DNA of 23,489 nt from Cardiobacteriaceae bacterium (GTDB lineage Bacteria > Pseudomonadota > Gammaproteobacteria > Cardiobacteriales > Cardiobacteriaceae): assembly GCA_030532785.1 (NCBI GenBank), contig JAUNKJ010000012.1, positions 1 through 23,489 on the forward strand, read 5' to 3'. Under the pieces are notes generated by a model, which saw only the letters and a list, made by a program, of their open reading frames with translations, searched no databases and was not told the origin of the DNA. Numbering within the stretch: position 1 is the stretch's first letter; each line of letters opens with the position of its first letter. The translations under genes were made by a program, and so were the position numbers. Below, piece by piece: positions 3,699 through 19,433 of the stretch.

Positions 3699-3714
3699 CC
3701 GAAGGATGGGCGTC

Positions 3715-4098: not shown

Positions 4099-4105
4099 AG
4101 CGCCC

Positions 4106-4765
4106 ATGAACAAAAAGACTTCTGGAAAAACCGCCGCCAAGGCATCTGCCGCTAAAACTTCCGCCGACTATCAGCGCGCCTTTCGCCAGCGTTTGCGCGA
4201 ACAGGGCTTGAAGAAGCGGGAGGTCTGGATTCGTCCCGAGCATGAAAAGCTTCTGGGCGAGATTGAAGAACGCCTGCGGCATCCCGCCGCAGGCACTACG
4301 GGAGCAACGCTGATGGATATCCGCAAAGACAGTTGGCATACTGAAGCGCTTTATCAGGCGCTGGCCGCCGAGCCTTTTTTCACTGACGGACGCGCGACGC
4401 TGGAGCTGATTGACGGCCTGCATCCTTCGTTGCTCGTAGTGCTGCATGATTACGGCGATTTGCCCGTGTATCTCGGGCTGTCCGGGGCGCAGATCGTGGT
4501 GGAAGCGGTGTTGTGGCAGGCGTCTTTGGTGCGCGACAGCGCCGCGTTTCACGAGGCGGTACTCGCCACGCACAAGTATTTTCCGCTGTCCACCATCAGT
4601 CTGGAGCAGACGGCGGACGGCGAGGCATATTACGGCATGTTCGGTGCGCTGTTGGCAGCGTCATCGCTTGCCGATATTCTGGTGGAGATTGAAACGCTGG
4701 CGGCAAACGTCATCGAGGCGGCGGCGGCGTACCGCGACTTTTTGCACACGGGAGAAGAGGCATGA
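4106..4765 (+). CDS. DUF2170(YjfI)-like protein with a roughly 85-aa Lys/Ala-rich basic N-terminal extension. Family assignment tentative; it rests on gene-order analogy with E. coli yjfI-yjfJ
   Basis: ORF in the track starts at 4064, but the promoter analysis favours ATG 4106 (MNKKTSGKTAAKASAAKTSADYQRAFRQRLREQGLKKREVWIRPEHEKLL...). The stop TGA at 4763-4765 overlaps the ATG of the downstream PspA-like gene (ATGA). The N-terminus resembles histone-H1/AlgP-like AKA/KTA low-complexity tails. Confidence 0.55.
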   Translation: MNKKTSGKTAAKASAAKTSADYQRAFRQRLREQGLKKREVWIRPEHEKLLGEIEERLRHPAAGTTGATLMDIRKDSWHTEALYQALAAEPFFTDGRATLELIDGLHPSLLVVLHDYGDLPVYLGLSGAQIVVEAVLWQASLVRDSAAFHEAVLATHKYFPLSTISLEQTADGEAYYGMFGALLAASSLADILVEIETLAANVIEAAAAYRDFLHTGEEA

Positions 4766-5451
4766 CCATGTGGGGAAAATTGATGACCGCGTTGCGCGGT
4801 GGGGTACACGAAACGGGCGAGGCGCTGATGGATAGCCAGGCGCTGCGCATTCTCGAGCAGGAAATCCGCGAGGCCACTGCGGAAGTGCAGCGTGCGAAGG
4901 ACAGCCTGGTGGAAGTGATGGCGCAGCAGAAGCTTGCCGAGGGGCGCGCAGGGCAGGTTGCGGAAAAAATCATGGAATATGAGGGCTATGCCTTGCAGGC
5001 GCTCGACAAGGACGAGGAAACGCTGGCGCACGAAGTGGCGGCACGCATTGCCGCGCTGGAGGCGGAAAAGGGCGAGCATGACGCGCTTGCTGGGCAATAC
5101 CGCCACGCCGTCCGTGCTTTGCAGGCCACGATTCAGGAGAGCGAGCAGCATTTGCGCCGCATCCGTCAACAGGCCGATACGGTGAAGGCCACGGCGCATG
5201 TGCAAAAGGCGCAGGCGGCGGTGGCGGAGCGCTTCGGTTCGTCGCAATCGAAGATGCACAATGCGATGGAATCGCTGGCGCGCATTAGGGAACGGCAGAT
5301 GGAAGACGCGATGCGTCTCGAGGTTTCGGGGGAATTGGCGCGCGCCGGCAGCGATGCGGCGCTGGAGGCAAAATTGCGCGATGCCGGGATTGGTGGCAAG
5401 GGCAATACCGATACGCAAGCGATATTGGAACGATTGAAGGCAAAAAAATGA
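4762..5451 (+). CDS. PspA/IM30 (phage-shock protein A / Vipp1, ESCRT-III-like) family protein, YjfJ-like
   Basis: 229-aa all-helical coiled-coil protein (MTMWGKLMTALRGGVHETGEALMDSQALRILEQEIREATAEVQRAKDSLVEVMAQQKLAEGRAGQVAEKIMEYEGYALQAL...) with the characteristic PspA N-terminal amphipathic region and heptad pattern. It is translationally coupled to the upstream gene. The TGA stop (5449-5451) lies inside repeat copy G. Confidence 0.75.
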   Translation: MTMWGKLMTALRGGVHETGEALMDSQALRILEQEIREATAEVQRAKDSLVEVMAQQKLAEGRAGQVAEKIMEYEGYALQALDKDEETLAHEVAARIAALEAEKGEHDALAGQYRHAVRALQATIQESEQHLRRIRQQADTVKATAHVQKAQAAVAERFGSSQSKMHNAMESLARIRERQMEDAMRLEVSGELARAGSDAALEAKLRDAGIGGKGNTDTQAILERLKAKK

Positions 5452-5512
5452 GAAATTTTTGCACACCAAGCGCTTTGTGAGGGTAAAAAATGATTATTTT
5501 GAGTGATAGTAT
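5447..5512. repeat. Copy G (partial, divergent) of the modular palindromic element
   Basis: AAAAAAATGAGAAATTTTTGCACACCAAGCGCTTTGTGAGGGTAAAAAATGATTATTTTGAGTGATAGTAT. It carries the AAGCGCTT core, a GGTAAAAAA flank and a terminal GATAGTAT (ATAGTG head inverted). Confidence 0.5.
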
Positions 5513-5561: not shown

Positions 5562-5683
5562 CCTCCCCTGCTTGCGGGGGAGGGACAGGGTAGGGGGAAA
5601 CGAGGTTTTCCACTTTATTGCCTCAAAAGAATGCTATGCGTTTGACACCCCCATCCCAACCTTTCCCCGTAAGCAGGGGAAGG
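5562..5683 (+). promoter_or_regulatory. Structured intergenic leader upstream of the yqiJ-like gene: two C-rich/G-rich hairpins, a G-quadruplex-capable G-run motif and a long-range 9-nt inverted repeat
   Basis: Hairpin 1 CCTCCCCTGCTTGCGGGGGAGG (5562-5584). G-run motif GGGGGAGGGACAGGGTAGGGGG (5576-5597). Hairpin 2 CTTTCCCCGTAAGCAGGGGAAGG (5661-5683). TTGCCTCAA (5618-5626) pairs with TTGAGGCAA (5690-5698). The function (terminator, attenuator or sRNA) is unknown. Confidence 0.35.
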
Positions 5684-5760
5684 AGTGGATTGAGGCAAAA
5701 CGAAACATCAATGCCAATAGCTGTACTTCTCCTTCAATTGAGACTGGCAAAGGAACAACC

Positions 5761-6399
5761 ATGGAAACCTTTTTCTACACGGCGTTTACCTTCCCCACGG
5801 CGGTGCCGACATTTTTGCTGATGCTCGCCGTACTCTTCTGGCTGGTGTCGCTTTTGGGTCTCATCGATGCCGACAGTCTGCTCGATGGCCTTGACGGCGG
5901 CGACGGCAACTTTGCCGAAAGCGGCGGGCTGCCCGCAGCACTCCTCTGGCGCTTCCGCCTGATCGGCTATCCGATCACGCTGACCCTGACCGTGGTGGCG
6001 CTCTTTGCCTGGTGGCTGTGCTATTACGCGATGTTTTTCCTCACGCCGCTGTTGCCGTGGCCATGGCTGCGTTATCCCGTGGGCATCGCCCTGTTGCCGC
6101 TCGCGTTTTACGCCGCCGCGTGGCTCGCGGGCAAGGCGCTGCTGCCGCTGCGGCCGCTCTTTGTGCAAAAGGAAACGCGGGCGCAGGGTTTTGTCGGGAA
6201 AACGGCAGTGGTGCGCACCTCTGCCGTCGACGAGCATTTCGGCGAGGCGACGCTTGACGACGGCGGCGCGGGGCTGATTGTCCAGGTGCGCAGCCGCACG
6301 CCGCTCGATGCCGGGACGCGTGTGGTGCTGCTCGAATTCGATGCCCAGGATCATGTGTATTATGTGATGGCAGAACAGGAATTTTTTGCAAAGGAGTAA
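5761..6399 (+). CDS. YqiJ-like (DUF1449 / NfeD-type) inner-membrane protein; predicted partner of the downstream flotillin
   Basis: Start at ATG 5761 (METFFYTAFTFPTAVPTFLLMLAVLFWLVSLLGL...), preceded by AAAGGAACAACC. The ORF in the track, starting at 5572, runs through the structured leader and is rejected. The protein has several N-terminal TM helices and a C-terminal soluble OB-fold-like segment (GFVGKTAVVRTSAVDEHFGEATLDDGGAGLIVQVRS...VVLLEFDAQDHVYYV), as in NfeD/YqiJ proteins. The TAA stop (6397-6399) sits inside the SD of the next gene. Confidence 0.65.
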   Translation: METFFYTAFTFPTAVPTFLLMLAVLFWLVSLLGLIDADSLLDGLDGGDGNFAESGGLPAALLWRFRLIGYPITLTLTVVALFAWWLCYYAMFFLTPLLPWPWLRYPVGIALLPLAFYAAAWLAGKALLPLRPLFVQKETRAQGFVGKTAVVRTSAVDEHFGEATLDDGGAGLIVQVRSRTPLDAGTRVVLLEFDAQDHVYYVMAEQEFFAKE

Positions 6400-6403
6400 C
6401 ACG

Positions 6404-8287
6404 ATGATGGAAATGATATTACCGGTCGCGACCGGCGCGGCGATTGTGCTGGCAGTGCTGATTTGCGTGGCGCTGCTGTTCAAGGCCTTCTATTACAAAG
6501 TCAATCAGGGCACCGCCCTGATCGTCAATGATCTCAGCCGCACGCCCAAGGTGCATTTCACCGGCGCATTTGTCTACCCGGTGATCTACCGCAAGGAATT
6601 GATGAATATCTCATTGATTACCATGGAAATCGACCGGCGCGGCAAGGACGGCCTCATCTGCGCCGACAATATGCGCGCCGATATTACCGTCGCCTTCTAT
6701 CTGCGCGTCAACGAAACCGCCGAAGATGTGCTGAAAGTCGCCAAATCCGTGGGCGCGGGGCGCGCCTCCGACAAAGACGCCGTCAACGACCTCTTCAACG
6801 CCAAATTCTCCGAAGCGCTGAAAACCGTGGGCAAACAGATTGAATTCGTCAAACTCTTTGAAAACCGGCAGGATTTCCGCGACAAAATCATCCGCGTCAT
6901 CGGCAATGATCTGAACGGCTACATCTTGGAAGACGTCGCCATCGACTACCTCGAACAAACGCCGAAAAGCTCGCTCGACCCCAACAACATCCTCGACGCC
7001 GAAGGCATCCGCAAAATCACCGAACTCACCGCGCAGCAAAACATCCGCACCAATATGCTCGCCCGCGATGAAGAACTCGCCATCACCAAGAAAAACGTGG
7101 AAACGCGCGAAGCCATGCTCGAACTCGAACGCCAGCAAGCCGACGCCGAAGCCAAACAGCAGCGCGAAATCGCGAGCATCCGCGCCCGCGAAGAAGCCGA
7201 AGCACGCAAAGTGCAGGAAGAAGAACGCAAAAAAGGGGAAATGGCGCACATCCTCGCCGAGCAGGAACTCGCCGTCATGCGCGAAAACCAGCAGCGCGAA
7301 GTAGACGTCGCCGCGCAAAACCGCGAACGCGCCGTCGCCGTGGAAATCGAAAAAGTCAACCGCGCAAGGGCGCTGGAAATCGTCTCGCGCGAACGCGAAG
7401 TGGAACTGCACCGCATCGAAGCGGAAAAAGCCGTGGAAGTGCAGAAACAGGAAATCGCCAACGTCATCCGCGAGCGCATCAGCGTCGACAAAACCGTCGC
7501 CATCGAAGAAGAACGCATCAAGGAAGTGCGCGAAGTGGCGGAAGCCGACCGCGCCAAACAAGTGCGCATCCTCGAAGCCGAAGCGCGCGCCGAAGAAGAA
7601 AAAGTCCGCGCCATCAAAGCCGCCGAAGCCGAAGAACAAAGCGCCAAACACCGCGCGGTGGAAATCACCACCATCGCCCAGGCGCGCCTCGACGCCGCCG
7701 CCAAAGACGCCGACGCCAAGAAAAAACTCGCCGAAGGCACCCAGGCCGAACAGGCCGCCTTTGGCCTCGCCGCCGCCCGCGTCCAGGAAGCGCAAGCCAT
7801 TGCCAGCGAAAAACAGGGCATGGCGGAAGCGAACATCATCCGCGCCAAAGGCGAAGCACAGGCGCAGGCCGAGCGCGACATCGGCATGGCACAAGCCGAG
7901 ATCACCCGTGAACAATTCCGCGCCGAAGCCGATGGTTTGACAGAAAAATTCGGCGCGATGGACACCATGAGCGCGGAATCCCGCGCGCACGAGGAATACC
8001 GCATGCGCCTCGACAACGCGCTGAAAGAAAGCCTCGCCGCCATCGCCGCCGGACAGGAAATCGCCCAGGAAAACGCGCGCATCCTCGCGATAGCACTCGA
8101 AAAAGCGAAAATCGACATCGTCGGCGGCGAACAGCACTTCTTCGACACCTTCGCCAAATCACTCTCGCTCGGCAAATCCATCGACGGCCTCATCGGCAAA
8201 AGCGACATCGCCAGCAGCGTCATCCAGCAATTGCTGGGCAGGGACGCGCTGCCGGAGCGGCATGACGAACAAAACAGTGGGGGATAA
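6404..8287 (+). CDS. Flotillin / band-7 (SPFH) family protein, YqiK-like, with a long Glu/Ala/Arg/Lys-rich coiled coil
   Basis: AAGGAG at 6391-6396 lies 7 nt upstream of ATG 6404 (MMEMILPVATGAAIVLAVLICVALLFKAFYYKVNQGTALIVND...). It has an N-terminal TM anchor, then an SPFH core (ADITVAFYLRVNETAEDVLKVAKSVG...), then an EA-repeat coiled coil of about 300 aa (7050-7950), as in bacterial flotillins. Gene order with the upstream NfeD-type gene matches E. coli yqiJ-yqiK. Confidence 0.8.
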   Translation: MMEMILPVATGAAIVLAVLICVALLFKAFYYKVNQGTALIVNDLSRTPKVHFTGAFVYPVIYRKELMNISLITMEIDRRGKDGLICADNMRADITVAFYLRVNETAEDVLKVAKSVGAGRASDKDAVNDLFNAKFSEALKTVGKQIEFVKLFENRQDFRDKIIRVIGNDLNGYILEDVAIDYLEQTPKSSLDPNNILDAEGIRKITELTAQQNIRTNMLARDEELAITKKNVETREAMLELERQQADAEAKQQREIASIRAREEAEARKVQEEERKKGEMAHILAEQELAVMRENQQREVDVAAQNRERAVAVEIEKVNRARALEIVSREREVELHRIEAEKAVEVQKQEIANVIRERISVDKTVAIEEERIKEVREVAEADRAKQVRILEAEARAEEEKVRAIKAAEAEEQSAKHRAVEITTIAQARLDAAAKDADAKKKLAEGTQAEQAAFGLAAARVQEAQAIASEKQGMAEANIIRAKGEAQAQAERDIGMAQAEITREQFRAEADGLTEKFGAMDTMSAESRAHEEYRMRLDNALKESLAAIAAGQEIAQENARILAIALEKAKIDIVGGEQHFFDTFAKSLSLGKSIDGLIGKSDIASSVIQQLLGRDALPERHDEQNSGG

Positions 8288-8290: not shown

Positions 8291-8554
8291 ATGGATATCA
8301 CGACCATTGATTTGCACGATGCAGAAAAACAGCTCGTGCAATTGGTGCAGAAAGTCAGCCGTTCGGGCAAACCAATCGTGATTGCCGAAGATGGCAAATC
8401 TTTGGTGCAGATCGCGCCGCTTGCGGAAAAAAACCGCAAACCGATTTGGGGCTTTATGCAAGGGCAAATCACCGTGCCGGATGATTTTGATGACATGGAA
8501 GCGGAGACGATCGCGGCCATGTTTGCCGGAGAGGATGATGAAGATTCTCTTTGA
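8291..8554 (+). CDS. Type II antitoxin, Phd/YefM (VapB-like) family
   Basis: 87 aa. MDITTIDLHDAEKQLVQLVQKVSRSGKPIVIAEDGKSLVQIAPL...KPIWGFMQGQITVPDDFDDMEAETIAAMFAGE. The C-terminal G.M.G.I.IPDDFD...F segment is typical of antitoxins paired with PIN toxins. Its 3' end overlaps the toxin start. Confidence 0.75.
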   Translation: MDITTIDLHDAEKQLVQLVQKVSRSGKPIVIAEDGKSLVQIAPLAEKNRKPIWGFMQGQITVPDDFDDMEAETIAAMFAGEDDEDSL

Positions 8555-8933
8555 TACCCATGTCCTTTTATGGATTGCGCTGGATCAGAAAGAAAAATTT
8601 TCCCGGAAAAGCCTGGCCTTGCTTGAAAACGCAGATCAGGATTTTTATGTGAGCGTGGCGAGTATTTGGGAAATTGCGATCAAGGCATCGTTGCAGAAAA
8701 CGGATTTCCAGATTGACCCTCGGCAGATGGTATTCCAGATGCAGGAGGCGGGAATCCATTTGCTGCCCATTGCATGCGAGCATATTTTTCATCTTGCGCA
8801 ATTGCCATCCATTCATCGCGATCCTTTTGACCGCCTGCTGCTGGCGCAAGCGGAAACGGAAAAGATGTATTTGATGACCGCCGACAGTAAATTGTTGCAG
8901 TACGCAAGCGCTTGGGTCATCGCGGCGGGATAG
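8535..8933 (+). CDS. vapC: VapC-type PIN-domain ribonuclease toxin
   Basis: Start at ATG 8535/8538 (MMKILFDTHVLLWIALDQ...), overlapping the antitoxin stop (8552-8554) by about 20 nt. The track ORF 8382-8933 begins inside the antitoxin and is not used. PIN acidic residues appear in the expected context (FDTHVLLW; SVASIWEIAIK; DPFDRLLLAQAE; LMTAD). Confidence 0.8.
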   Translation: MMKILFDTHVLLWIALDQKEKFSRKSLALLENADQDFYVSVASIWEIAIKASLQKTDFQIDPRQMVFQMQEAGIHLLPIACEHIFHLAQLPSIHRDPFDRLLLAQAETEKMYLMTADSKLLQYASAWVIAAG

Positions 8934-8965
8934 AATGAACCAGGTATATGTACCGTTCTTTTTTT

Positions 8966-9051
8966 GGTGAGAAAATTTCTCATGTATAAGCGCTTTGCGC
9001 GAGAAAATTTCTCACCATAAGCGCTTAATGATGGTAAAAAAACCACTATTT
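8966..9051. repeat. Copy C (long form, inverted orientation) of the modular palindromic element
   Basis: TGGTGAGAAAATTTCTCATGTATAAGCGCTTTGCGCGAGAAAATTTCTCACCATAAGCGCTTAATGATGGTAAAAAAACCACTATTT, the reverse complement of the ATAGTGGTTTTTTTACC...AAGCGCTT...GAGAAAATTTCTC arrangement. It is followed directly by the SD and ATG of the ankyrin gene. Confidence 0.7.
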
Positions 9052-9062
9052 CAAGGATAAAT

Positions 9063-9800
9063 ATGAAAAAATATACAAAAACCGGCAAAGCCCTGTGGTT
9101 ATCCCTGCTCTGCGCGCTGAACCTCGCCCACGCCACGGACGATGCGCAGGCGGAAAAACTGCACGAGATGTCGCGTGCGGCGAAGGCGGGCGATGTGGCA
9201 GCGTTGCAGACGCTCGCGGGCACGCCGCCGGATCAGGCACTTTATGCGCGTCTCTTGTGCCGCAGCATCGCCGCGGACAATTTCCGCGCGTTTGTCGCCC
9301 TGCTCGATGCCGGTGCCGATGCCGGCTATGGCGAGCGCGGCGTGCGTGATCCCGGGATACACTGCGCCGTGTTGCCGCCCGCGCTTCGAGCGCGCTATCT
9401 CGAAGAACTGTTGCGGCGTGGCGTGGACGTGAACACGCGCAATACCCTGGGGGAAACCCCGCTGCACAGCGCGCTGGGGCTGACGAAAAAGCCGTTCGTC
9501 CAGATCGAGATGGTCGACATGCTGCTCGCGGCAGGCGCGGACATCCACGCCCGCGACAAATACGGCAAGACCGTGCTGTTCAAGGCCATCGTCGGCGGCA
9601 ATCCGCACCGCGACTGGGTGATGTATTTTCTCGAAAAAGGCGTGGACCCGCAGGCGAGAAGCGATATGGGTTACACCTTCCAGTTCAACTATCTCTACAG
9701 CACCCGCGAAATGAAAGGCGAGGGGAAACGCCGCCGCGACAAAGTCAGACAATGGCTTAGCGAACGCGGCATACCGCTGGAAAGTGATGCAAAAAAATAA
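9063..9800 (+). CDS. Secreted (Sec signal peptide) ankyrin-repeat protein
   Basis: MKKYTKTGKALWLSLLCALNLAHA|TDD... signal peptide with an AxA site. There are at least three ANK repeats (e.g. GETPLHSALGLTKKPFVQIEMVDMLLAAGADIHARDKYGKTVLFKAIVGG). RBS AAGGA sits 7-10 nt upstream. The stop TAA 9798-9800 immediately precedes repeat copy D. Confidence 0.75.
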   Translation: MKKYTKTGKALWLSLLCALNLAHATDDAQAEKLHEMSRAAKAGDVAALQTLAGTPPDQALYARLLCRSIAADNFRAFVALLDAGADAGYGERGVRDPGIHCAVLPPALRARYLEELLRRGVDVNTRNTLGETPLHSALGLTKKPFVQIEMVDMLLAAGADIHARDKYGKTVLFKAIVGGNPHRDWVMYFLEKGVDPQARSDMGYTFQFNYLYSTREMKGEGKRRRDKVRQWLSERGIPLESDAKK

Positions 9801-9804
9801 CCAT

Positions 9805-9860
9805 TTATAGTGATTTTTTACCACCACAAGCGCTTCACGATGGTAAAAACATACTATATT
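9805..9860. repeat. Copy D (short form) of the modular palindromic element
   Basis: TTATAGTGATTTTTTACCACCACAAGCGCTTCACGATGGTAAAAACATACTATAT, a roughly 50-bp palindrome ATAGT...TTTTTTACCA...AAGCGCTT...TGGTAAAAA...ACTAT. Confidence 0.65.
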
Positions 9861-9878
9861 TAAGCAAAGGATGAAAAA

Positions 9879-12800
9879 ATGACCGATCTGCACAGCGAAA
9901 CCCTGGTCAATCAGGCGGTGGCCGAAGGCAGCGCCTACGCCATCATCCGCAAGCGTCTGGAGGAACAGGGCGCGCGCTTGCAGACCCTGACCCGTGCCTT
10001 GAACGAGGCGCGTACCGCGCATTTCGGCAGCACCGAGATGCGCGTCGTCGCCCGCATCCGCGTGCGCACCGAACACAATTGCATCGCCCGCGACATGGTG
10101 CAGCTCGGCGACACACTCCTCTTCGGCTACAACGTTTTCATGGGACTCAAGCCGGAAACGCATGTGGCAGACGTCTTCGCCCTGTTTGCGCTGGAGGTGG
10201 CGGACGGGCAAACCACCATCCGCGAAGTGCCGCTCGCGGGCAGCTTCCTGCAAGACAGCCGCTTCACCAGCGATTTCGACGAACTCTACCGCTATTACAA
10301 GCACACCCGGCTCACCGAACTCACCGTGCGCGACGGCAAACTTCTGGCCGCCTTCCAGATCGGCGAACGCGCCGAAGACCGCCGCGTCTTCCGCTGGCAA
10401 TTGCGCCCCGACGGCACGCCGGATTACATCGACAACCGTGGCGAACGCGACATCGCGCTCCCCGAACCCTATGATTTCCTGTGGCATAGCGCCGGGCGCG
10501 AGCGCCTGAGCGAAGACGGCAGCCACCTCAACATCGCCGACACCCTGTTTGTCGCCACACGCGACGGCACCCTCACCCTGCGCATGGAAGACAACACCCA
10601 AGGCGGGCAAACCCTGCTTGCGGAAACGCTTGCCGACCGCACCCAATCGCTCGCCGATCTCGACGCCGCATGGGCGGATGTCGACGGCCTGCTGCTCCTG
10701 CGCCTCACCCCCTACCGCGAAGCGCCGCGCCACTACATTTTCAACCGCCTCACCCAAGCGCTCACGCGCGAAGACAGCCTCGGCGACTCCTGCGTGCAGC
10801 TCCCGGAAGGCCACGGCATCCTCTACCCCGGCGGTTATGCCCTTGCAAGTGGCGAGATCAAAAACTACGACGAACCGCAGGGCATGACCTTCAAGCGCAA
10901 AATCCGCGCCCCCAACGGCGAAGACATGCTCTTCGTCTTCTACGCCCCGGCGCGCGGCGAATTTGCCCTCTACTCCTACAACCTCATCAGCAAAAGCCTG
11001 CAAAATCCGGTGTATGGCCACGGCTATGCGCTCTCGCCTTCCGGCGCGCTCACCATCTTCAGCGCCGAAGGCGAGCCGACGCGGGTGCATCCCATGCAAA
11101 TCTGGCAAACGCCCTATTGCAGCGACGAACACGCCGCCAACCAGCCGCAGGACGACGCCCCCTTCTCGCGCATCGGCAACCCCGATCTGGTGCGCGGCAT
11201 CTCCGACCTCTACAGCGTCGCCCGCCTCATCGGCGAACAGCAGGCCAGCCAGGCCGTCTACGAACGCCTGCAAAAACAGATACAAAAACTCTTTGACGAC
11301 TACTACTGGCTTGATGACGCCAGCCTCGCCGCCGAAGCAACGCTTGCGCCCTTTGCCGCCCTGCTGCGCGACATGGACGCCACCGCCGACAACGTCATCG
11401 ACGAATTTGAAAAAGCCGAAGCCATCCGCCGCGACGCCGCCCACGCGCTCGAACAGGCGCGCGAGGCGCAGCGCCAGTTGCAGCGCGACCTGCAACACGG
11501 GCAATGGGCAACCGTGGGCGAACACGCCCAGGCGCTCGCCCGCATCGGTGAAGCGCGCGGGCAGCTCGTCATGCTCGGCGAACGGCGCGGCATGGATACG
11601 GCAGCGCTTGGCGAACTGCAACAGGCGCTCGACGCCCTGCAGGCGCAGACCGGCGAGCGCACCGTCGCCTTCTTGCGCGACGCCAACGCCTTTGCCGCCT
11701 ACCACGACGCGCTGGCGCAACTGGCGGCGCAAATCGATGCCGCCGCCAAACGCAGCGATCTCGACGCCATCCTCGCCGACATCCAGCACAGCGCCGCCGG
11801 GCTGGATGAACTCTCGGCGCTGATGAACACGCTGGAGATTGAAGACGCCACCCTGCGCACCCGCATCATTGACGACATCTCCGCCGTCTACGCCCGCCTC
11901 AACCAGGAGCGCGCCCGCGCGCGCCACAAGGGGCAAGGCCTCGGCAGCGAAGAAGCCGCCGCGCAATTCGCCGCGCAAATGAAGCTGCTCACGCAAAGCC
12001 TCGGCAATGCGCTCGCCGACGTGCAAACCCCGGAGGACTGCGACGATGCGCTCGCGCGTCTCCTCGTGCAACTGGAAAATCTGGAAAGCCGCTTTGCTGA
12101 CGACGAACGCTTCCTTGCCGACCTCGCCGACAAGCGCGACGACCTGCACAGCGCGCTCACCGAACGCAAGCAGCAACTGCTCGAAGCGCGCGAACGCAAG
12201 GGGCAGCAACTCGCCGACGCCGGCTCGCGCATCCTCGACAACCTCGCGCGCCGCGCCCAGACCTTCAGCGACGTCGCCGCCTTCAACACCTGGCTTGCCA
12301 GCGATGCACTGGTGCAGAAAATCGCCCAACTCGGCAAAACCCTGCGCGAACAGGGCGACACCGTGCGCGCCGACGACCTCGACGCCCGCTTCAAGGCCAT
12401 CCGCGACCAGGCTATCCGCACCTTGCGCGACAAAAGCGAACTCTTTGACGGCGAACATCTCATCCGCTTCGGCCAATACCGCTTTTCCGTCAACAGCACA
12501 GCGCTCGACCTCGTCCTCCTGCCGCGCGAGGGCAAACTCTGCGCCCACCTCGCCGGTACCCAATATTTCCAGCCCATCGAACACCCCGAACTCGACGCCC
12601 TGCGCGACTACTGGGACATCAGCGTCCTCTCCGAAAGCGCCGCGCTCTACCGCAGCGAATATCTCGCGGCCGAAATGCTGCGCGCCGCCGTGCGCCGCGA
12701 ACAGGGCCTGACCCTCGAAGCGCTGGGGCAGGCGGTGCAAAGCCTGCCCGACTTGCAGGCGCTGGCAGCCGCCTTTGCCGCGCCGCGCTATCAGGAAGGC

Positions 12801-15164
12801 TATGAAAAAGGCATTCACGACCACGACGCCGCGCGCATCCTGCAAGCCGTCTTTCCCCTTTGGCAACACGCGGGCAGCCTGCGCTACCCGCCGAACGCGC
12901 GCGCCCTTGCCCAGCTTTACTGGGCAGAACACGCAGCGGATCATCCCGCGCTGGCCGTCGAAGCGCAGGCAGCGGCGCAGATGGCAGCGCGCTTTGCCCA
13001 CAGCGCCGCCAGCGATGCCCTCGTGGCCGAACTCGCGCCCGCGCTGCGTGCCTTTGCCGAGGGCGCACGCCTCGACAGCGCCGCAGCCGACGTGGCCGCC
13101 GCCTATCTCGTCGCCGAATGTGCGGCGGCGCAGCCCGCGTTTGTGGTGAGCCGTGCCGCGCGCGCGGCGCTTGAGCGCCTGCAACAGGCGCTGGGCGATG
13201 CCGACTGGCGCGCAGGGCAGGCGAACCTCGCCACCCTGGAAAGGCTTGCGCGTTACCGCCTCGCGCGCCATTGGCTCGCGAGCGTGCATGAAGCAGACAG
13301 CGCCTTTCTCGACGAAGCCGCCGCCGTGCTGGCGCTTGAGGGCGAGCTTGTGCATCAGGACAGCGCCGCCGACCTTGATTACCGCGTGGAAGGGCTGCTT
13401 GGCAGCCATCCGCGCCTCGACGGGCAAGCGCTGGCGGGCAGCGTCGACGATTTCCTCGCGCGCAGCCGGCATCACCGCGAGGTCGTCATTCCGGCAGTCG
13501 CGCGCTACCACGCCCTGCGCCAGCAAGTGGCGGCCGCAGAACGGCAGGCGCTCGATCTTGACAACCTCGTCGCGAGACCGCTCACGAGTTTCGTGCGCAA
13601 CCGCCTCATTCACGAACATTATCTGCCGCTGATCGGCGCCAACCTCGCCAAGCAGATGGGCGCGGCGGGCGAGGGCAAGCGCAGCGACCTCATGGGCTTG
13701 CTGCTGATGATCTCCCCGCCCGGCTACGGCAAAACCACGCTGATGGAATATGTCGCCAACCGCCTCGGTCTCGTCTTCATCAAAATCAACGGCCCCTCCC
13801 TCGGCCATGCGGTCACCGGCATCGACCCGGCGCAAGCGCCGGATGCCGCCGCGCGCGCCGAACTGGAGCGCCTGAACCTCGCGCTGGAAATGGGCGACAA
13901 CGTCATGCTCTATATCGACGACATCCAGCACACCCATCCCGCCTTCCTGCAGAAATTCATCCCGCTCTGCGACGCCACGCGGCGCATGGACGGCGTGTGG
14001 CGTGGCGAAGCGAAAACCTACGACCTGCGCGGGCGCAAATTCGCCGTGGTCATGGCGGGCAACCCCTACACCGAAAGCGGCGAAGCCTTCAACGTCCCCG
14101 ACATGCTTGCCAACCGCGCCGACATCTACAACCTCGGCGACATCATCGGCGACAGCGGCGAAGCGTTTGCACAAAGCTATCTGGAAAACGCGCTCACCTC
14201 GAACCCGGTACTCGCGCCGCTCGCGCTGCGCGACCCTGAAGACATCCGCCGCTTCATCCGCCTGGCGCAGGGGGAAACCGTCGCTGCCAGCGATTTTGTC
14301 CACCCCTACAGCGGCGCGGAAAGCGGGGAAATCGCCGCCGTCCTTGCGCGCATGATGCGCGTGCGCGATGTGGTGCTTGCCGTCAACCGCGCCTACATCG
14401 CCTCCGCCGCACAGGAAGACCGCTACCGCAGCGAGCCGCCCTTCCGCCTGCAAGGCAGCTACCGCAACATGAACAAAATGAGCGAAAAAATCTCCGCCGT
14501 CATGAACGACGCCGAACTGGAACAGCTCATCATCGACCACTACCAGGGCGAAGCGCAGCTCCTGAAAGACGGCGGCGAAGCCAACCTCCTCAAATTCGGC
14601 GAACTGCGCGGCACCTTGAGCGACGAAGAAAAAACGCGCTGGGACGACATCAAAACCGCCTTCCGCCGCCTGCAGGCGCTCGGCGGCAGCGACAGCGCCC
14701 AGGAAAAAATCGTCATCCAATTAAAAGGTTTGCACGACACCCTGCAACAAACCTTCGCGCAAATGGATCAAACGCTCGCCACCTTGGCACCGGCGCAAAG
14801 CGCGGCGCAGCAGCAAACGCTTGACGCCATCCGCCGCCTTACCGCAAGCATCGCCGCCATCGCCCCCAAAGAACTGCACATGCAGCAGGAAAACCTCGCC
14901 GCGATACGGCAACTGGCGGAAGGCGTACAGGCGATCAAGCCCACGGTCAACATCGCCGCGCCGCAGGAAGACGCATGGCTCGCGCGTTTCTCGGAAATGG
15001 TCAGCCGGCTGGAAGCGGGGCTGCAACCGGTGCTGGAACAACTGGGACGCAACCTCGACATGAACTACGTCTCCATCTACAAAATCAACCGCCTCGCCAA
15101 ACAGGTGGACAAACTCGCCGAACAGGAAGCAAAAGGCAATATTTCACAAAAACCGAAAAAATAG
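9879..15164 (+). CDS. Giant (1761 aa) uncharacterised protein with a single dynein/MoxR/McrB-type (AAA_5-like) ATPase module near the C-terminus, a long helical Ala/Leu/Gln/Arg/Glu/Asp-rich middle region and a distinct N-terminal domain of about 450 aa
   Basis: One uninterrupted ORF with strong GC3 codon bias. Walker A LLMISPPGYGKTTLMEY at nt 13713-13739. Walker B NVMLYIDDIQH around 13902-13931. Downstream lies KFAVVMAGNPYTESGEAFNVPDMLANRADIYNL, which matches the hhhATxNP...L..AhhsRF pattern of AAA_5. The N-terminal 450 aa are rich in Gly/Tyr/Pro (GHGILYPGGYALASGEIKNYDEPQG...VYGHGYALSPSGALTIFSAEGEP). Residues about 450-1250 are strongly helical with heptad-like repeats. There is no signal peptide or TM segment. 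The last two Lys codons and the TAG stop (15162-15164) come from repeat copy E. RBS AAAGGA lies upstream of ATG 9879. Confidence 0.85.
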   Translation: MTDLHSETLVNQAVAEGSAYAIIRKRLEEQGARLQTLTRALNEARTAHFGSTEMRVVARIRVRTEHNCIARDMVQLGDTLLFGYNVFMGLKPETHVADVFALFALEVADGQTTIREVPLAGSFLQDSRFTSDFDELYRYYKHTRLTELTVRDGKLLAAFQIGERAEDRRVFRWQLRPDGTPDYIDNRGERDIALPEPYDFLWHSAGRERLSEDGSHLNIADTLFVATRDGTLTLRMEDNTQGGQTLLAETLADRTQSLADLDAAWADVDGLLLLRLTPYREAPRHYIFNRLTQALTREDSLGDSCVQLPEGHGILYPGGYALASGEIKNYDEPQGMTFKRKIRAPNGEDMLFVFYAPARGEFALYSYNLISKSLQNPVYGHGYALSPSGALTIFSAEGEPTRVHPMQIWQTPYCSDEHAANQPQDDAPFSRIGNPDLVRGISDLYSVARLIGEQQASQAVYERLQKQIQKLFDDYYWLDDASLAAEATLAPFAALLRDMDATADNVIDEFEKAEAIRRDAAHALEQAREAQRQLQRDLQHGQWATVGEHAQALARIGEARGQLVMLGERRGMDTAALGELQQALDALQAQTGERTVAFLRDANAFAAYHDALAQLAAQIDAAAKRSDLDAILADIQHSAAGLDELSALMNTLEIEDATLRTRIIDDISAVYARLNQERARARHKGQGLGSEEAAAQFAAQMKLLTQSLGNALADVQTPEDCDDALARLLVQLENLESRFADDERFLADLADKRDDLHSALTERKQQLLEARERKGQQLADAGSRILDNLARRAQTFSDVAAFNTWLASDALVQKIAQLGKTLREQGDTVRADDLDARFKAIRDQAIRTLRDKSELFDGEHLIRFGQYRFSVNSTALDLVLLPREGKLCAHLAGTQYFQPIEHPELDALRDYWDISVLSESAALYRSEYLAAEMLRAAVRREQGLTLEALGQAVQSLPDLQALAAAFAAPRYQEGYEKGIHDHDAARILQAVFPLWQHAGSLRYPPNARALAQLYWAEHAADHPALAVEAQAAAQMAARFAHSAASDALVAELAPALRAFAEGARLDSAAADVAAAYLVAECAAAQPAFVVSRAARAALERLQQALGDADWRAGQANLATLERLARYRLARHWLASVHEADSAFLDEAAAVLALEGELVHQDSAADLDYRVEGLLGSHPRLDGQALAGSVDDFLARSRHHREVVIPAVARYHALRQQVAAAERQALDLDNLVARPLTSFVRNRLIHEHYLPLIGANLAKQMGAAGEGKRSDLMGLLLMISPPGYGKTTLMEYVANRLGLVFIKINGPSLGHAVTGIDPAQAPDAAARAELERLNLALEMGDNVMLYIDDIQHTHPAFLQKFIPLCDATRRMDGVWRGEAKTYDLRGRKFAVVMAGNPYTESGEAFNVPDMLANRADIYNLGDIIGDSGEAFAQSYLENALTSNPVLAPLALRDPEDIRRFIRLAQGETVAASDFVHPYSGAESGEIAAVLARMMRVRDVVLAVNRAYIASAAQEDRYRSEPPFRLQGSYRNMNKMSEKISAVMNDAELEQLIIDHYQGEAQLLKDGGEANLLKFGELRGTLSDEEKTRWDDIKTAFRRLQALGGSDSAQEKIVIQLKGLHDTLQQTFAQMDQTLATLAPAQSAAQQQTLDAIRRLTASIAAIAPKELHMQQENLAAIRQLAEGVQAIKPTVNIAAPQEDAWLARFSEMVSRLEAGLQPVLEQLGRNLDMNYVSIYKINRLAKQVDKLAEQEAKGNISQKPKK

Positions 15165-15240
15165 TGATTTTTTACCACCATGAAGCGCTTATCGCGAGAA
15201 AATTTTGCACGATAAGCGCTTCATGGTGAGAGAATTTACC
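15157..15240. repeat. Copy E (long form) of the modular palindromic element
   Basis: AAAAAATAGTGATTTTTTACCACCATGAAGCGCTTATCGCGAGAAAATTTTGCACGATAAGCGCTTCATGGTGAGAGAATTTACC. It contains a perfect 19-bp stem CACCATGAAGCGCTTATCG / CGATAAGCGCTTCATGGTG around a 13-nt loop. Confidence 0.7.
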
Positions 15241-15264
15241 AAATAACCACGCAGGATGCGCGAC

Positions 15265-15328
15265 GGTGGGCTGAAGCCCAGCCTACAAATCGCTGCGCGA
15301 TTCCCCCACCCCCGCAAGTGGGGGAGGG
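15265..15328. repeat. REP-like GTAG-headed unit plus a C-rich/G-rich hairpin, in the convergent gap between the giant ATPase gene and polA
   Basis: The reverse complement of 15271-15296 reads TGTAGGCTGGGCTTCAGCCCACC, the same family as 3976-3998. CCCCCACCCCCGCAAGTGGGGGAGGG (15300-15328) has the same stem type as hairpins 5562-5584 and 5661-5683. The hairpin lies just 3' of the polA stop on the minus strand, but no U-tract follows it. Confidence 0.55.
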
Positions 15329-15336
15329 CGTTTCAT

Positions 15337-18039
15337 TTAATGCGCTTCATCCCAGTTTTGTCCGCTGCCGGCGTCGACGATGAGGGGGACGGCGAGGGCG
15401 AAGGCGTTTTCCATGCGTTTGATGATGTCTTCGCGGTAGTGGTCGAGGCGCGTGGCGTCGATTTCAAAGACGAGTTCGTCGTGGACTTGCATGATGAGTT
15501 GGCAGGCGGGGTCGTTGCCGTGGGCGCGCTCGATGTCGAGCATGGCGCGTTTGATGATGTCGGCGGCGCTGCCTTGCATGGGGGCGTTGATGGCAAGTCT
15601 TTCCGCGGCCTGGCGGCGCTGCATGTTTTTGCTGCCGATATCGGGCAGATAGAGGCGGCGGCCAAGGAGGGTTTCCACATAGCCCTGGCGGCGCGCGGTT
15701 TGTCTGGCGCTTTCCATGTAGGCGTGGACTTTGGGGTAGCGCGCGAAGTAGGTGTCGATGTAGTCGGCGGCTTGTCCGCGCGGGATGCCGAGTTGCCGCG
15801 AGAGGCCGAAGGCGCTCATGCCGTAGATGAGGCCGAAGTTGATGGCTTTGGCGTCGCGGCGTTGTTCGCGGCTGACTTGCTCAAGCGGGACGTTGAAGAT
15901 TTCCGAGGCGGTGGCGCGGTGGATGTCTTGTCCTTCGGCGAAGGCGCGGATGAGGCCGGGGTCGCCGGACAGATGCGCCATGATGCGCAGCTCGATTTGC
16001 GAGTAGTCGGCGGCGAGCAGTACTTTGCCGGGCGCGGCGATGAAGGCTTGGCGGATGCGCCGCCCTTCGGCGGTGCGGATGGGGATGTTTTGCAAATTGG
16101 GGTCGGAGGAGGAGAGGCGGCCGGTGCTGGTGACGGCTTGGTGGTAGCTGGTGTGGATGCGGCCGGTGCGGGCGTCGATGAGTTCGGGGAGGCGGTCGGT
16201 GTAGGTGGATTTGAGTTTGGCGAGGCTTCGGTGTTCGAGGATGAGGCGCGGCAGTTCGGCGTTGTGGAGGTCGACGAGTTCTTGCAGGGCGTCTTCGTTG
16301 GTGCTGGGTTGGCCTTTGGGGGTTTTGCGCACCACGGGGAGTTGCAGGCGCTCGAAGAGGATTTCCTGGAGTTGTTTGGGCGAGGCGAGGTTGAAGGTGT
16401 CGCCGACCATGTCGTGCGCCTGTTTTTCAAGGTTTGCGAGGGTTTGCGCGATTTCCTGCGATTGCGCTTTGAGCAGTGCGGCGTCGATGGCGACACCTCT
16501 GGCTTCCATGCGGTAGAGCACTTGCGACAGCGGCCGTTCGAGGTCGCGGTAAAGCGCTTCGAGGCGCGGTTCGGATGCGAGTTTGCCCGCGAGGAAGTGG
16601 TAGAGGCGCAGGGTGATGTCGGCGTCTTCGCAGGCGTAGTGGCCGGCGGTGTCGAGGGGGATTTGGTCGAAGGTGAGTTGTTTTGCGCCTTTGCCGGCGA
16701 TGTCTTCGAAGGTGGTGGTCTGGATGTTGAGGTAGTGGTCGGCGAGGTCGTCCATGTTGTGGCGGGTGGCGGTGGCGTTGTGGCAGTAGGACATGAGCAT
16801 GGTGTCGTCGCATTCGCCGCGTAGCGCAATGCCGTAGCGCGCGAGGATGTGGCGGTCGTATTTGAGGTGTTGCCCGGTTTTGTTGAGGCGTTCGTTTTCG
16901 AGGAGGGGTTTCAGCGCTTGCAGCGTGTCGTCGAAGGGGAGGTTGGGGGCGAGTTGGTGCGCGAGCGGCAAATAATAGGCTTCGCCGGGTTCGAGGGCGA
17001 CGCTGATGCCCACGAGTTTTGCCTGCATGTAATCGAGGGCATCGGTTTCGGTGTCGAAGGCAAAGCGCTCGGCGCTGGCCAGGCGGGCAATGAGGGCGTC
17101 GCGCGCGGCGGTGTCGGTGACGATGTGGTAGTCGCGTGCCACCGGGGCGGGCGCGGCGTCGGCGACGGGCTGACCGAGGTGGCGCGCCTTGATGCTGTTC
17201 AGTTCGTAGGTGTCGCAGAGTTGTTCGAGTTTGTCCGGGTTTTGCGCTTGCAGGGCGAGGTCGGCAATGGTGGTGTCGAGATCGAGGTCGCAGTTGATGG
17301 TGGCGAGTTCGTAAGAGAGCGGCAGGGTGGCAAGGCTGGTGCGGAGGTTGTCGCCGATTTTGCCTTTGATTTTCGGGGCGTTGGCGATGATGCCGTCAAG
17401 GCTGCCGTATTCTTCCAGCCATTTGGCGGCGGTTTTCGGCCCGACCTTGTCAACGCCGGGGATGTTGTCGGCCTTGTCGCCAACCAGCGCCAAAAAGTCC
17501 ACGACCTGTTCGGCGGTGAGCGCATCGACTTTGAAACGGCGCGCCACGTCTTCGCGGGTGGTGACTTCGTTTTTCATGGTGTCGAGGAGGGTGATGCCGG
17601 GGTGGGTGAGGAGTTGCACCATGTCCTTGTCGCCGGAGGAGATGACGACGTGGTAGTTGTCGGCCAAGGCGCGTTTGGCGAGCGTTCCAATCACGTCGTC
17701 GGCTTCGACGCCGCTTTCAATAATGAGGGGAAAGCCGAGGGCGGCGACGAGTTGGTGCAGCGGTTCGATTTGCGCTTTCAAATCAGGCGGGGTCGGCGGG
17801 CGGTTGGCCTTGTAGTCGGGGTAGAGGTCGTGGCGGAAGGTTTTGCCTTTGGCATCAAAGACGACGCCGAAGTAGGCGGGGCGGTAGTCGTCGTAGAGCT
17901 TGGCGAGCATTTTGATGACGCCGTGCAGGGCGCCGGTGGGGTGGCCGGCGCGGTTGGTGAGCGGGGGCAGGGCATGAAAGGCGCGGAAAAGGTAGGACGA
18001 GCCGTCAACGAGGACGACGAGGTGGTTGGAATCGATCAT
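15337..18039 (-). CDS. polA: DNA polymerase I
   Basis: 900 aa. N-terminal 5'-3' exonuclease (MIDSNHLVVLVDGSSYLFRAFHALPPL...), a 3'-5' exo/Klenow-like middle, and polymerase motifs A/B/C (DYSQIELRIMAHLS; RRDAKAINFGLIYGMS; QVHDELVFE). GGGAG lies 8 nt upstream of ATG 18039 on the minus strand. The +-strand ORFs 15256-16824 and 16849-18171 are antisense artefacts. Confidence 0.95.
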   Translation of the reverse strand: MIDSNHLVVLVDGSSYLFRAFHALPPLTNRAGHPTGALHGVIKMLAKLYDDYRPAYFGVVFDAKGKTFRHDLYPDYKANRPPTPPDLKAQIEPLHQLVAALGFPLIIESGVEADDVIGTLAKRALADNYHVVISSGDKDMVQLLTHPGITLLDTMKNEVTTREDVARRFKVDALTAEQVVDFLALVGDKADNIPGVDKVGPKTAAKWLEEYGSLDGIIANAPKIKGKIGDNLRTSLATLPLSYELATINCDLDLDTTIADLALQAQNPDKLEQLCDTYELNSIKARHLGQPVADAAPAPVARDYHIVTDTAARDALIARLASAERFAFDTETDALDYMQAKLVGISVALEPGEAYYLPLAHQLAPNLPFDDTLQALKPLLENERLNKTGQHLKYDRHILARYGIALRGECDDTMLMSYCHNATATRHNMDDLADHYLNIQTTTFEDIAGKGAKQLTFDQIPLDTAGHYACEDADITLRLYHFLAGKLASEPRLEALYRDLERPLSQVLYRMEARGVAIDAALLKAQSQEIAQTLANLEKQAHDMVGDTFNLASPKQLQEILFERLQLPVVRKTPKGQPSTNEDALQELVDLHNAELPRLILEHRSLAKLKSTYTDRLPELIDARTGRIHTSYHQAVTSTGRLSSSDPNLQNIPIRTAEGRRIRQAFIAAPGKVLLAADYSQIELRIMAHLSGDPGLIRAFAEGQDIHRATASEIFNVPLEQVSREQRRDAKAINFGLIYGMSAFGLSRQLGIPRGQAADYIDTYFARYPKVHAYMESARQTARRQGYVETLLGRRLYLPDIGSKNMQRRQAAERLAINAPMQGSAADIIKRAMLDIERAHGNDPACQLIMQVHDELVFEIDATRLDHYREDIIKRMENAFALAVPLIVDAGSGQNWDEAH

Positions 18040-18167
18040 GGGGCTGCTCCCGGCCGGGGTAAAAGGTTTGCGAAGGTGTCGGGAAATGCGGCAGAATGGC
18101 GCGTTTTCCCCGAACGGCGGGCATTTTTAAGAATGCCCTTCCGCTTGTCAAATGCAGGACACCGCCC

Positions 18168-18914
18168 ATGAACGACAACGACCAGAGCCAGTGCTACAAA
18201 CGCAATCCGCCAAAGCTGATCCGCCTGAAAGATACCGATACCTTGCAGAAGGAATCGTGGAAAGTCTTTCAAATCATGAGCGAATTTGTGGAAGGCTTTG
18301 AGCGGCTGGCGGTGATCGAGCCGTCGGTGAGCATTTTCGGCTCCGCCCGCATCAAGGAAGATCATCCCTATTACCAGCTCACCATGCAGGTGGCGAAGCG
18401 CTTGTCGGACGAGGGGTTTTCCGTGGTCTCCGGCGGCGGCCCCGGTTTGATGGAGGCGGCCAATCGCGGCGCATACGCGGGCGAGAAGGGGCTTTCCATC
18501 GGCCTCAACATTCAGTTGCCGCACGAGCAGAGCGGCAATCCCTATCAGGATATTTCCATTGATTTCCGCCACTTTTTCTCGCGCAAGGTGATGTTTGTCA
18601 AATACGCGAATGCCTATGTGGTGATGCCCGGCGGCTTCGGTACGCTGGATGAACTGGCGGAGATTCTGACACTCATCCAGACCGGCAAGAGCCGCCGCTT
18701 CCCGGTGGTGCTGGTTGGCAGCGAGTTCTGGGCAGGGCTGATTGCCTGGTGCAAGAACACCCTCGTCACCGAGGGCATGATTGCCGCCGAAGACCTGGAT
18801 TTGGTGACGATGGTGGACGATGTCGACAGCGTGCTCGAGGTGATTCATGCCTTCTATGAAGACCGCCCCTACGCCCCCGTCGGCGATGAAGTGAAACGGC
18901 AAAGGGAGTTGTGA
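18168..18914 (+). CDS. LOG / TIGR00730-family Rossmann-fold protein (cytokinin riboside 5'-monophosphate phosphoribohydrolase-like nucleotide N-glycosidase), long type-II form
   Basis: SGGGPGLMEAANRGA and PGGFGTLDELAEILTL motifs. Start assigned to ATG 18168 (MNDNDQ...). The in-frame ATG 18096 is also possible. The stop TGA 18912-18914 overlaps the dctQ start (GTGATGG). Confidence 0.75.
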   Translation: MNDNDQSQCYKRNPPKLIRLKDTDTLQKESWKVFQIMSEFVEGFERLAVIEPSVSIFGSARIKEDHPYYQLTMQVAKRLSDEGFSVVSGGGPGLMEAANRGAYAGEKGLSIGLNIQLPHEQSGNPYQDISIDFRHFFSRKVMFVKYANAYVVMPGGFGTLDELAEILTLIQTGKSRRFPVVLVGSEFWAGLIAWCKNTLVTEGMIAAEDLDLVTMVDDVDSVLEVIHAFYEDRPYAPVGDEVKRQREL

Positions 18915-19432: not shown

Positions 19433-19433
19433 C

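Follow-up and report, generated by a model that had tools for sequence, protein, structure and literature searches.

A PspA/flotillin/AAA+ ATPase operon with a lineage-specific vapBC-ankyrin insertion and a family of intergenic palindromic elements in uncultured Cardiobacteriaceae

Introduction

Operons that combine a CesT/Tir (DUF2170)-PspA gene pair with a band-7/flotillin gene, a YqiJ/YuaF-like gene and the gene of a novel AAA+ ATPase have been described previously (Ravi et al. 2024, PMC11237479), and in P. aeruginosa one transcript covers a DUF2170-PspA-NfeD-SPFH cluster and the two genes that follow it (PMC10948618, PMC13086221). Here, we analyze a locus of this type in an uncultured member of the Cardiobacteriaceae. 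The DNA under study, hereafter the window, is the entire 23,489-bp contig JAUNKJ010000012.1 of a metagenome-assembled genome; in it, a vapBC toxin-antitoxin pair and an ankyrin-repeat gene (ank) lie between the flotillin-like and ATPase genes, and intergenic gaps hold a palindromic element built on the 8-nt core AAGCGCTT. We consider it likely that the locus is an ancient, widely conserved membrane-stress operon, interrupted between the flotillin and ATPase genes in one uncultured Cardiobacteriaceae clade. A preliminary description of positions 8291-15336 had instead viewed vapBC, ank and the ATPase gene as an accessory cassette, inserted between the flotillin operon and polA and carrying the same repeat at every gene junction.

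Results

Conservation of the operon

The ancestral gene order is complete in the window, running from DUF2170 through PspA, the NfeD-like gene and flotillin to the insertion and then the ATPase gene. All window genes lie on the + strand except polA, the sole gene on the - strand. The operon and its insertion comprise the following genes:

4064-4765, + strand, DUF2170 / CesT-Tir-like protein (BacA/YjfI-like), first gene of the operon (Pfam DUF2170, E = 4e-44)
4762-5451, + strand, PspA/IM30 family protein (Pfam PspA_IM30, E = 3.6e-43)
about 5761-6399, + strand, NfeD/YqiJ-like membrane protein (likely start at Met64 of a 275-aa open reading frame [ORF] beginning at 5572)
6386-8287, + strand, SPFH/flotillin-like membrane protein with a long coiled coil (YqiK-like; Band_7 on the N terminus)
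8291-8554, + strand, vapB-type antitoxin, 87 aa (weak match to Pfam PhdYeFM, E = 0.014)
8538-8933, + strand, VapC toxin with PIN domain (Pfam PIN, E = 5.9e-15)
9063-9800, + strand, ankyrin-repeat protein with a predicted signal peptide, 245 aa (Pfam Ank_2, Ank_4, Ank)
9879-15164, + strand, giant AAA+ ATPase, 1,761 aa (Pfam DUF3686, DUF7902 and AAA)

The ATPase matches DUF3686 with E = 9e-169, and its similarity to PDB sequences is weak and restricted to Rix7, p97 and Rpt around the Walker A region. From 578 confirmed matches (best identity about 50%), we examined 80 loci of species-representative genomes and counted linkage to flotillin in the 68 that have at least 2.5 kb of upstream sequence. 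A flotillin-like gene is found upstream of the ATPase gene, on the same strand, in 63 of these 68 loci, with a median gap of 111 bp, and the loci without it are all from Sorangium. The linked loci span Gammaproteobacteria, Myxococcota, Actinomycetota, Acidobacteriota, Planctomycetota and Verrucomicrobiota, and include Wohlfahrtiimonas (L016, L054), the nearest named relative among them. Because the flotillin gene adjoins it across phyla at this frequency, the ATPase gene is not mobile cargo; the two genes are ancestral partners, with the ATPase gene as the terminal one of the operon. In 61 of the 63 linked loci the two genes lie no more than 446 bp apart, versus 1,591 bp in the window, and none of the 80 distant loci has vapBC, ank or polA nearby. 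The insert therein is confined to 8291-9800, that is, vapBC and ank alone, and the ATPase gene has to be removed from the accessory cassette to which it had been assigned.

The upstream half of the operon is conserved as well. The DUF2170 gene overlaps the PspA gene, directly 3′ of it, by 4 nt, and lies directly 5′ of PspA in gammaproteobacterial relatives too; its product scores 262.7 bits with the NCBIfam BacA model, under the 300-bit cutoff of that model. In many gammaproteobacterial loci the DUF2170-PspA pair precedes the NfeD-like gene, which in turn is upstream of the flotillin gene in 51 of the 80 ATPase-relative loci. The NfeD-like protein, whose P. aeruginosa counterpart PA14_16160 has been termed a short NfeD (PMC13086221), has no match in Pfam or NCBIfam, and its translation displays three hydrophobic segments (by eye) and a beta-rich C-terminal domain. 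Homology of the 275-aa ORF to its sisters starts at residue 60, the sister genes encode 213-214 aa, and the extra 5′ part (5572-5760) overlaps C-rich hairpins described below; the ORF is probably over-extended, the real start being Met64 (nucleotide 5761).

The flotillin-like protein shows an N-terminal hydrophobic segment followed by an E/A/K/R-rich coiled region. At full length it retrieved nothing in Pfam, NCBIfam or a PDB sequence search, probably because the long E/A/K/R-rich coiled coil triggers the HMMER bias filter, while its N-terminal 239 aa match Pfam Band_7 above the cutoff (E = 2.5e-8). It is annotated as hypothetical by NCBI, and its homologues are labelled YqiK or flotillin family in their source records. 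The Pfam matches also bear out the PIN, ankyrin, large AAA ATPase and polA assignments made previously from the sequence, and the gene then called flotillin does encode an SPFH domain.

Public records name the ATPase "DNA repair ATPase", a name taken from the Pfam description of DUF3686. This label is probably misleading, since the PspA, flotillin and NfeD neighbors indicate a membrane-remodelling role; by analogy with other AAA+ unfoldases, the assemblies that it remodels would be those of flotillin or PspA, whose genes lie upstream. A defence-system reading was considered and dropped, as PADLOC gave no match for the ATPase, vapBC or the flotillin gene, and a merely repeat-driven match for ank.

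The vapBC and ank genes

The vapB start codon lies 3 nt past the flotillin stop codon, both in the window and in L084, one of the Cardiobacteriaceae metagenome contigs that we found by protein searches (close relatives are hereafter given by L numbers). Because of this spacing, we infer that vapBC is co-transcribed with the flotillin gene. The pair has the hallmarks of a VapBC module: a PIN toxin with its acidic residues intact (D7, E46, D99 and D117) and a small upstream antitoxin gene, which overlaps the PIN gene by 17 nt. Relatives of VapC, about 45% identical, are encoded on 502 plasmids, paired with Phd/YefM antitoxins, and a plasmid DNA search with vapBC returned zero nucleotide matches. 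In composition, vapBC is foreign, with a GC content of 0.50 and a third-position GC content (GC3) of 0.56 for vapB, and 0.48 and 0.58 for the PIN gene, as compared with GC3 values of 0.67-0.83 for all other window genes. The native GC content and codon bias that had been attributed to the entire interval are therefore a property of ank (GC3 0.74) and of the ATPase gene (0.80), and not of vapB and the PIN gene. At the corresponding position in L084, vapB is 83% and the PIN gene 85% identical, while both are absent from L085. The vapBC pair is a classic selfish module that settled at a junction within the operon and was gained before the window and L084 lineages split.

The N terminus of the ank product reads as a Sec-type signal peptide, MKKYTKTGKALWLSLLCALNLAHA, which makes a periplasmic location probable. 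It shares 60% identity with residues 1-237 of a 452-aa protein in L084; the window ank (245 aa) lacks about 210 C-terminal aa of this orthologue.

A clade-wide family of palindromic elements

The elements that flank ank and follow the ATPase gene belong to a family in which one to three 31-nt units, each with the invariant 8-nt palindromic core AAGCGCTT, lie between inverted termini; in multi-unit copies the cores are 31 nt apart. A/T-centred boxes flank the core (TTTCTC/GAGAAA or TTTTACC/GGTAAAA), and full copies are bounded by inverted termini of about 17 nt, (A)TTTATAGTGATTTTTTACC, that begin with TATAGTG. The termini read TATAGTGATTTTTT(ACC or CTC), with the end sequence also written TATAGTGATTTTTTACC. 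Seven loci are present in the window:

about 543-598, element
3600-3695, element
5437-5500, element of one unit, in the gap between the PspA and NfeD-like genes (RNA fold z = -0.2)
8960-9051, repeat C, two units, after the PIN gene; right terminus borders the ribosome-binding site of ank
9802-9862, repeat D, one unit with both inverted termini, after ank
15149-15241, repeat E, two units, after the ATPase gene; left terminus holds the ATPase stop
20832-20924, element

The core occurs 16 times in the window versus 0.91 expected, a count reached by 0 of 100 shuffles, and the terminus ATAGTGATTTTTTACC, allowing at most 3 mismatches, occurs 8 times versus 0.07 expected; all 8 terminus sites fall within the seven loci, each of which has a perfect core. 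Copies C, D and E after vapC, ank and the ATPase gene, as reported in the preliminary description, are thus real, with counts far beyond chance. The repeat that it placed at every gene junction is missing from the 3-nt flotillin/vapB junction and from the vapB/PIN overlap, and the family is not special to the interval, as seen from the copies at about 543-598, 3600-3695, 5437-5500 and 20832-20924. Elements occupy 7 of the 8 internal window gaps of at least 40 bp, and at least one core is found in 19 of 25 such gaps across five contigs, with a like pattern in L086-L088. Complete copies, mutually 75-85% alike, are present in the window, L083, L084 and L086-L088, and L084 carries the orthologue of the two-unit copy C. 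The elements are therefore a clade-wide family that occupies about three quarters of intergenic gaps and is generic at the window junctions. At a rate of 19/25, copies at all three junctions are close to the default outcome, and the repeats carry no special link to the proposed cassette.

Like miniature inverted-repeat transposable elements (MITEs), the elements are short and non-coding, have terminal inverted repeats and occur in many dispersed copies. We found no target-site duplication, clean empty site or transposase for the elements in the window and its relatives, and the sequence flanking them extends the inverted repeat and does not form direct repeats. A metagenome scan for terminus plus core retrieved four long contigs of other assemblies, L089-L092, with a GC content of 46-52%. 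Each has one identical two-unit copy (e.g., L090 8860-8960), flanked by a split DAO-oxidoreductase ORF on one side and a DUF302 gene on the other, with no other intergenic copies nearby and no transposase. Either the copy is a sporadic one, outside the clade in which the family is dense, or the segment was transferred.

Two elements extend into genes. The FAD-oxidase ORF takes its final eight codons and its TGA stop (…NSDFLPS*; 3610-3634) from an element, and the TAG stop of the ATPase gene (15162-15164) lies inside the element terminus ATAGTGATTTTTT (15157-15164). Since termini reach into coding sequence, elements were inserted at, or reshaped, gene 3′ ends.

The core is also found within genes (at 1254, 4344, 8906, 16552 and 18396), most sites being xAA-GCG-CTT codon triplets. 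A six-fold in-gene excess over codon-order shuffling (12 vs. 1.9) raised the idea of an uptake sequence, similar to the DNA uptake sequences (DUS) or uptake signal sequences (USS). This idea was rejected, as the 13 in-gene sites compare with 19.8 expected from their own 7-mers and the core ranks 6 among 256 palindromic 8-mers; 9 of the 13 sites share one codon frame. The in-gene signal reflects ordinary oligomer and codon-context bias, and is a caution on the choice of null model.

Element stems are long and A/T-rich at the base. Copy C folds at -28.5 kcal/mol (z = -4.3) and copy E at -40 kcal/mol (z = -11); no canonical promoter was found by promoter scan at copies C, D and E, and no known RNA family by Rfam in the window. 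If transcribed, the elements would form long hairpins, very stable in the two-unit copies. The best-supported reading of repeat function, drawn by analogy with repetitive extragenic palindromes (REPs), bacterial interspersed mosaic elements (BIMEs) and Correia elements, is that these hairpins would serve as 3′-end protectors or as partial terminators/attenuators. In this way, they would split the ancestral single transcript into segments of differing abundance.

REP units and other repeats

The ATPase-polA gap is filled by repeat E and by two further units:

15265-15286, - strand, GTAG-type REP unit (GTAGGCTGGGCTTCAGCCCACC), with an exact twin at 3977-3998
15303-15328 (15306-15328 by narrower bounds), C-rich/G-rich hairpin (CC[TA]CCCC…GGGGGAGGG), with relatives at 5562-5584 and 5665-5687

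Both had been noted before, and both now have counterparts elsewhere in the window. The two exact copies of the REP unit compare with 0 expected, and the C-rich hairpin has five matches at three loci versus 0.45 expected. The combination of a 5′ GTAG with an imperfect palindrome, by which REPs are recognized, is displayed by 15265-15286 and 3977-3998 and not by the AAGCGCTT elements. The fold z score of the entire gap is -2.6 for the + strand and -4.2 for the - strand.

The hairpins at 5562-5584 and 5665-5687 form a 33-nt inverted pair inside the called start of the 275-aa NfeD-like ORF. The 429-bp gap 3635-4063 is dense with other palindromic units, among them the REP at 3977-3998, and a hairpin pair of the GTAGGCTGGGTTA…TAACCCAGC type lies at about 3855-3945. 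In all, the window contains three or more families of repeats.

The flotillin-ATPase slot in close relatives

The slot between the flotillin and ATPase genes is variable among close relatives (identities to the window in brackets):

L084 (flotillin 89%): flotillin, 3 nt, vapB (83%), PIN (85%), two-unit repeat, ank (452 aa), one-unit repeat, ATPase (69%)
L085 (flotillin 85-88%): flotillin, 147-aa SRPBCC gene over the flotillin stop codon, two-unit repeat, ATPase (69%)
L082 (ATPase 72%): dapB, two-unit repeat, ATPase
L083 (flotillin 90%): contig terminates 6 nt past the flotillin stop codon

The preliminary description had proposed that related genomes be compared for variability of the interval and for a match between repeats and synteny breakpoints. 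L084, L085 and L082 do differ in slot content, and the breakpoints agree in part. Next to the ATPase gene, DNA homology restarts inside repeat D, at 9802 in L084, 9816 in L085 and 9828 in L082, and a 652-bp ank indel (window 9784-9801 vs. L084 3575-4226) stops precisely where the left terminus of repeat D begins. At the opposite edge of the slot, the vapBC and SRPBCC replacements start at the flotillin 3′ end, where there is no repeat. Only ank has repeats on both flanks; no repeat separates vapBC or the SRPBCC gene from the flotillin stop. The 55 nt 5′ of the ATPase start codon (right half of the element, ribosome-binding site and ATG) are orthologous in four lineages, indicating that the repeat D copy is old; the site has one repeat unit in two of these lineages and two units in the two others.

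Gene order on the polA side

The remaining genes of the window are:

665-3634, + strand, FAD-oxidase/Fe-S protein
15337-18039, - strand, polA
18096-20822, + strand, LOG, DctQ and DctM
21037-23396, + strand, S15 and PNPase

Contigs L086, L087 and L088, with polA identities of 92%, 85% and 82%, keep the divergent LOG-DctQ-DctM neighbors of polA. An exact look-up of the window polA found it not to be on record. Homology ends exactly at the polA stop codon (window 15336-15339), past which each contig has a different gene (argininosuccinate synthase, recC or a TetR/RND pump), so that the ATPase-polA adjacency is specific to this genome. The DctM/S15 junction (window 20819-20925) is broken in all three contigs alike, again with a different gene beyond DctM in each. 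Operon order is very fluid clade-wide. An apparent LOG/DctQ insertion in L088 proved to be a run of Ns at a scaffold gap, flanked by duplicated sequence.

Sister contigs end in or beside elements (L082 at 15288-15408, in a three-unit copy; L085 at 1-30; L083 at 11876-11881), which suggests that the family fragments short-read assemblies of these genomes.

Alternative explanations

We weighed four other accounts of the locus. In the first proposal, vapBC, ank and the ATPase gene make up an accessory cassette of three units, joined via repeat recombination and inserted between the flotillin operon and polA. A repeat copy does follow each of the three units, the interval differs among relatives, and the 3′ neighbor of polA is different in every sister contig; nevertheless, with the ATPase gene downstream of flotillin in 63/68 genomes and native in composition (GC3 0.80), a left edge devoid of repeat, and repeats that are generic (19/25 gaps), this scenario is extremely improbable. 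We also find it very unlikely that some contig junctions are chimeric joins at dispersed repeats. In favor of such misassembly, sister contigs tend to end at or in repeats (L082 in a three-unit copy, L085 at its start in a copy, L083 6 nt past the flotillin stop), and the ATPase/polA junction has no independent confirmation, but a 2-kb contig of another, independent assembly (L081) matches window 9012-11011 at 100%, L084 repeats the flotillin-vapBC-ank-ATPase order, and the copies share too little exact sequence for long-k-mer misjoins.

Alternatively, vapBC and the periplasmic ankyrin protein could be working parts of the system and no mere passengers, e.g., an RNase switch triggered by stress and an adaptor in the periplasm. 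Two lineages, about 11% apart in flotillin and 31% in the ATPase, share the flotillin-vapB-PIN-ank-ATPase order, both with the 3-nt flotillin-vapB spacing, and the PIN catalytic residues are intact. We think such recruitment unlikely, however, as the genes are missing from 80/80 distant loci and from L085, whose slot holds an unrelated SRPBCC gene, vapBC pairs are classic selfish modules frequent on plasmids, and ank has a 210-aa indel between the two lineages.

The elements might themselves reorder operons on a genome scale, as active MITE-like units or recombination substrates, and this would include the split in L082 and the turnover of the slot. Compared with the sisters, order is broken at 10 of 12 repeat-bearing gaps versus 1 of 15 repeat-free junctions (Fisher p = 8e-5), and gene order differs even from that of the relative with 92% identical polA; three independent rearrangement endpoints are in or at the edge of copy D, the 652-bp ank indel adjoins its left terminus, and the inverted termini of about 17 nt are MITE-like. 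The contrast is confounded, however: because almost every repeat-free junction lies inside an operon, between tightly spaced or overlapping genes, with selection against breaks and no room for an element, it cannot separate breaks caused by repeats from a shared inter-operon location. Clade synteny does break at repeat-bearing gaps, yet these are the only inter-operon gaps, which leaves repeat-mediated recombination in the clade a candidate mechanism. In addition, the vapBC and SRPBCC left endpoints at the flotillin stop codon have no repeat, the copies at 75-85% likeness are a poor substrate for homologous recombination, and the target-site duplication, clean empty site and transposase that we looked for were not found. 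We regard genome-scale shuffling as a tentative possibility, one that is compatible with an ancient operon bearing an insertion; the elements may add to fluid operon order as dispersed homology or preferred insertion sites. A bolder version, that they are an undescribed and currently active Correia-like MITE family, which drives fast operon shuffling, every inter-operon junction of the 23-kb window being broken relative to relatives with 82-92% identical polA, and, as modular RNA hairpins, re-wires the ancient PspA/flotillin/AAA+ operon into separately tuned pieces, appears doubtful.

The preferred explanation, a conserved operon with a lineage-specific insertion and repeats acting as 3′-end hairpins, has to accommodate several observations that count against it. 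L082, the closest ATPase relative (72% identity), has no flotillin gene within 10 kb upstream, so the flotillin-ATPase linkage is dispensable in the clade, and the flotillin and ATPase halves may no longer work together there. In the PMC10948618 supplements, bacE and bacF of P. aeruginosa are given only as "hypothetical protein", and either may correspond to the DUF3686 ATPase. Regarding the hairpins, one-unit copies fold more weakly (z from -0.2 to -3.3), a consensus intrinsic-terminator scan flags none of copies C, D and E, and no promoter-like site was found 5′ of ank or the ATPase gene. Finally, the ATPase/polA junction is known from one metagenome-assembled contig.

Discussion

Taken together, the locus is a known operon with a lineage-specific insertion, accompanied by a new but conventional family of intergenic palindromic elements and by fluid gene order, and none of these findings overturns current understanding. 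For annotation, the ATPase belongs to the PspA/flotillin membrane system and is not to be taken as mobile cargo. The clade constitutes a natural experiment, in which a flotillin-ATPase link that is tight in many phyla has been loosened or lost, and which could help test the need for making the two proteins together. At a practical level, the repeats break metagenome assemblies and are a candidate driver of the fluid gene order.

The vapBC pair resembles type II VapBC systems with Phd/YefM antitoxins in its gene overlap, intact acidic residues, atypical GC content and plasmid-borne relatives, and differs from typical modules of this kind in the weak antitoxin match (E = 0.014) and in sitting inside a conserved operon. 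The REP unit at 15265-15286 closely resembles the REP associated with the REP-associated tyrosine transposase (RAYT) of Cardiobacterium hominis (PMC4690160), and it shares with its twin at 3977-3998, with REP/BIME sequences of E. coli and with C. hominis REP the GTAG motif and a G-rich hairpin.

The AAGCGCTT elements are similar to the Correia elements of Neisseria (Correia repeat enclosed elements, CREE) and to MITEs in being short (about 57-120 bp), dispersed and intergenic, often abutting gene ends, and with the Correia elements they have in common long hairpins and inverted termini beginning with TATAGTG. The likeness to the 26-bp Correia repeat tatagtggattaac... (PMC5039591) does not extend beyond TATAGTG, and the interior differs from that of Correia elements in its variable number of 31-nt units with a AAGCGCTT core. 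As mosaic, palindromic sequences located after genes the elements resemble BIMEs, but they are without GTAG and have A/T-rich ends, unlike REP/BIME sequences.

The operon itself is matched most closely by that of Ravi et al. and by the 'biofilm-associated cluster' bacABCDEF of P. aeruginosa (PMC10948618). The window has a DUF2170-PspA pair, a protein combining a transmembrane segment, a band-7/SPFH domain and a coiled coil, and a large AAA+ ATPase downstream, and the five protein types, counting the putative NfeD-like protein, are encoded in equal order and on the same strand as in these systems. Compared with the operon of Ravi et al., 1.6 kb with vapBC and ank part the flotillin gene from the ATPase gene in the window, and palindromic elements occupy three operon gaps; within the clade, the linkage is lost in L082 and the DUF2170-PspA pair is not upstream in L083 and L085.

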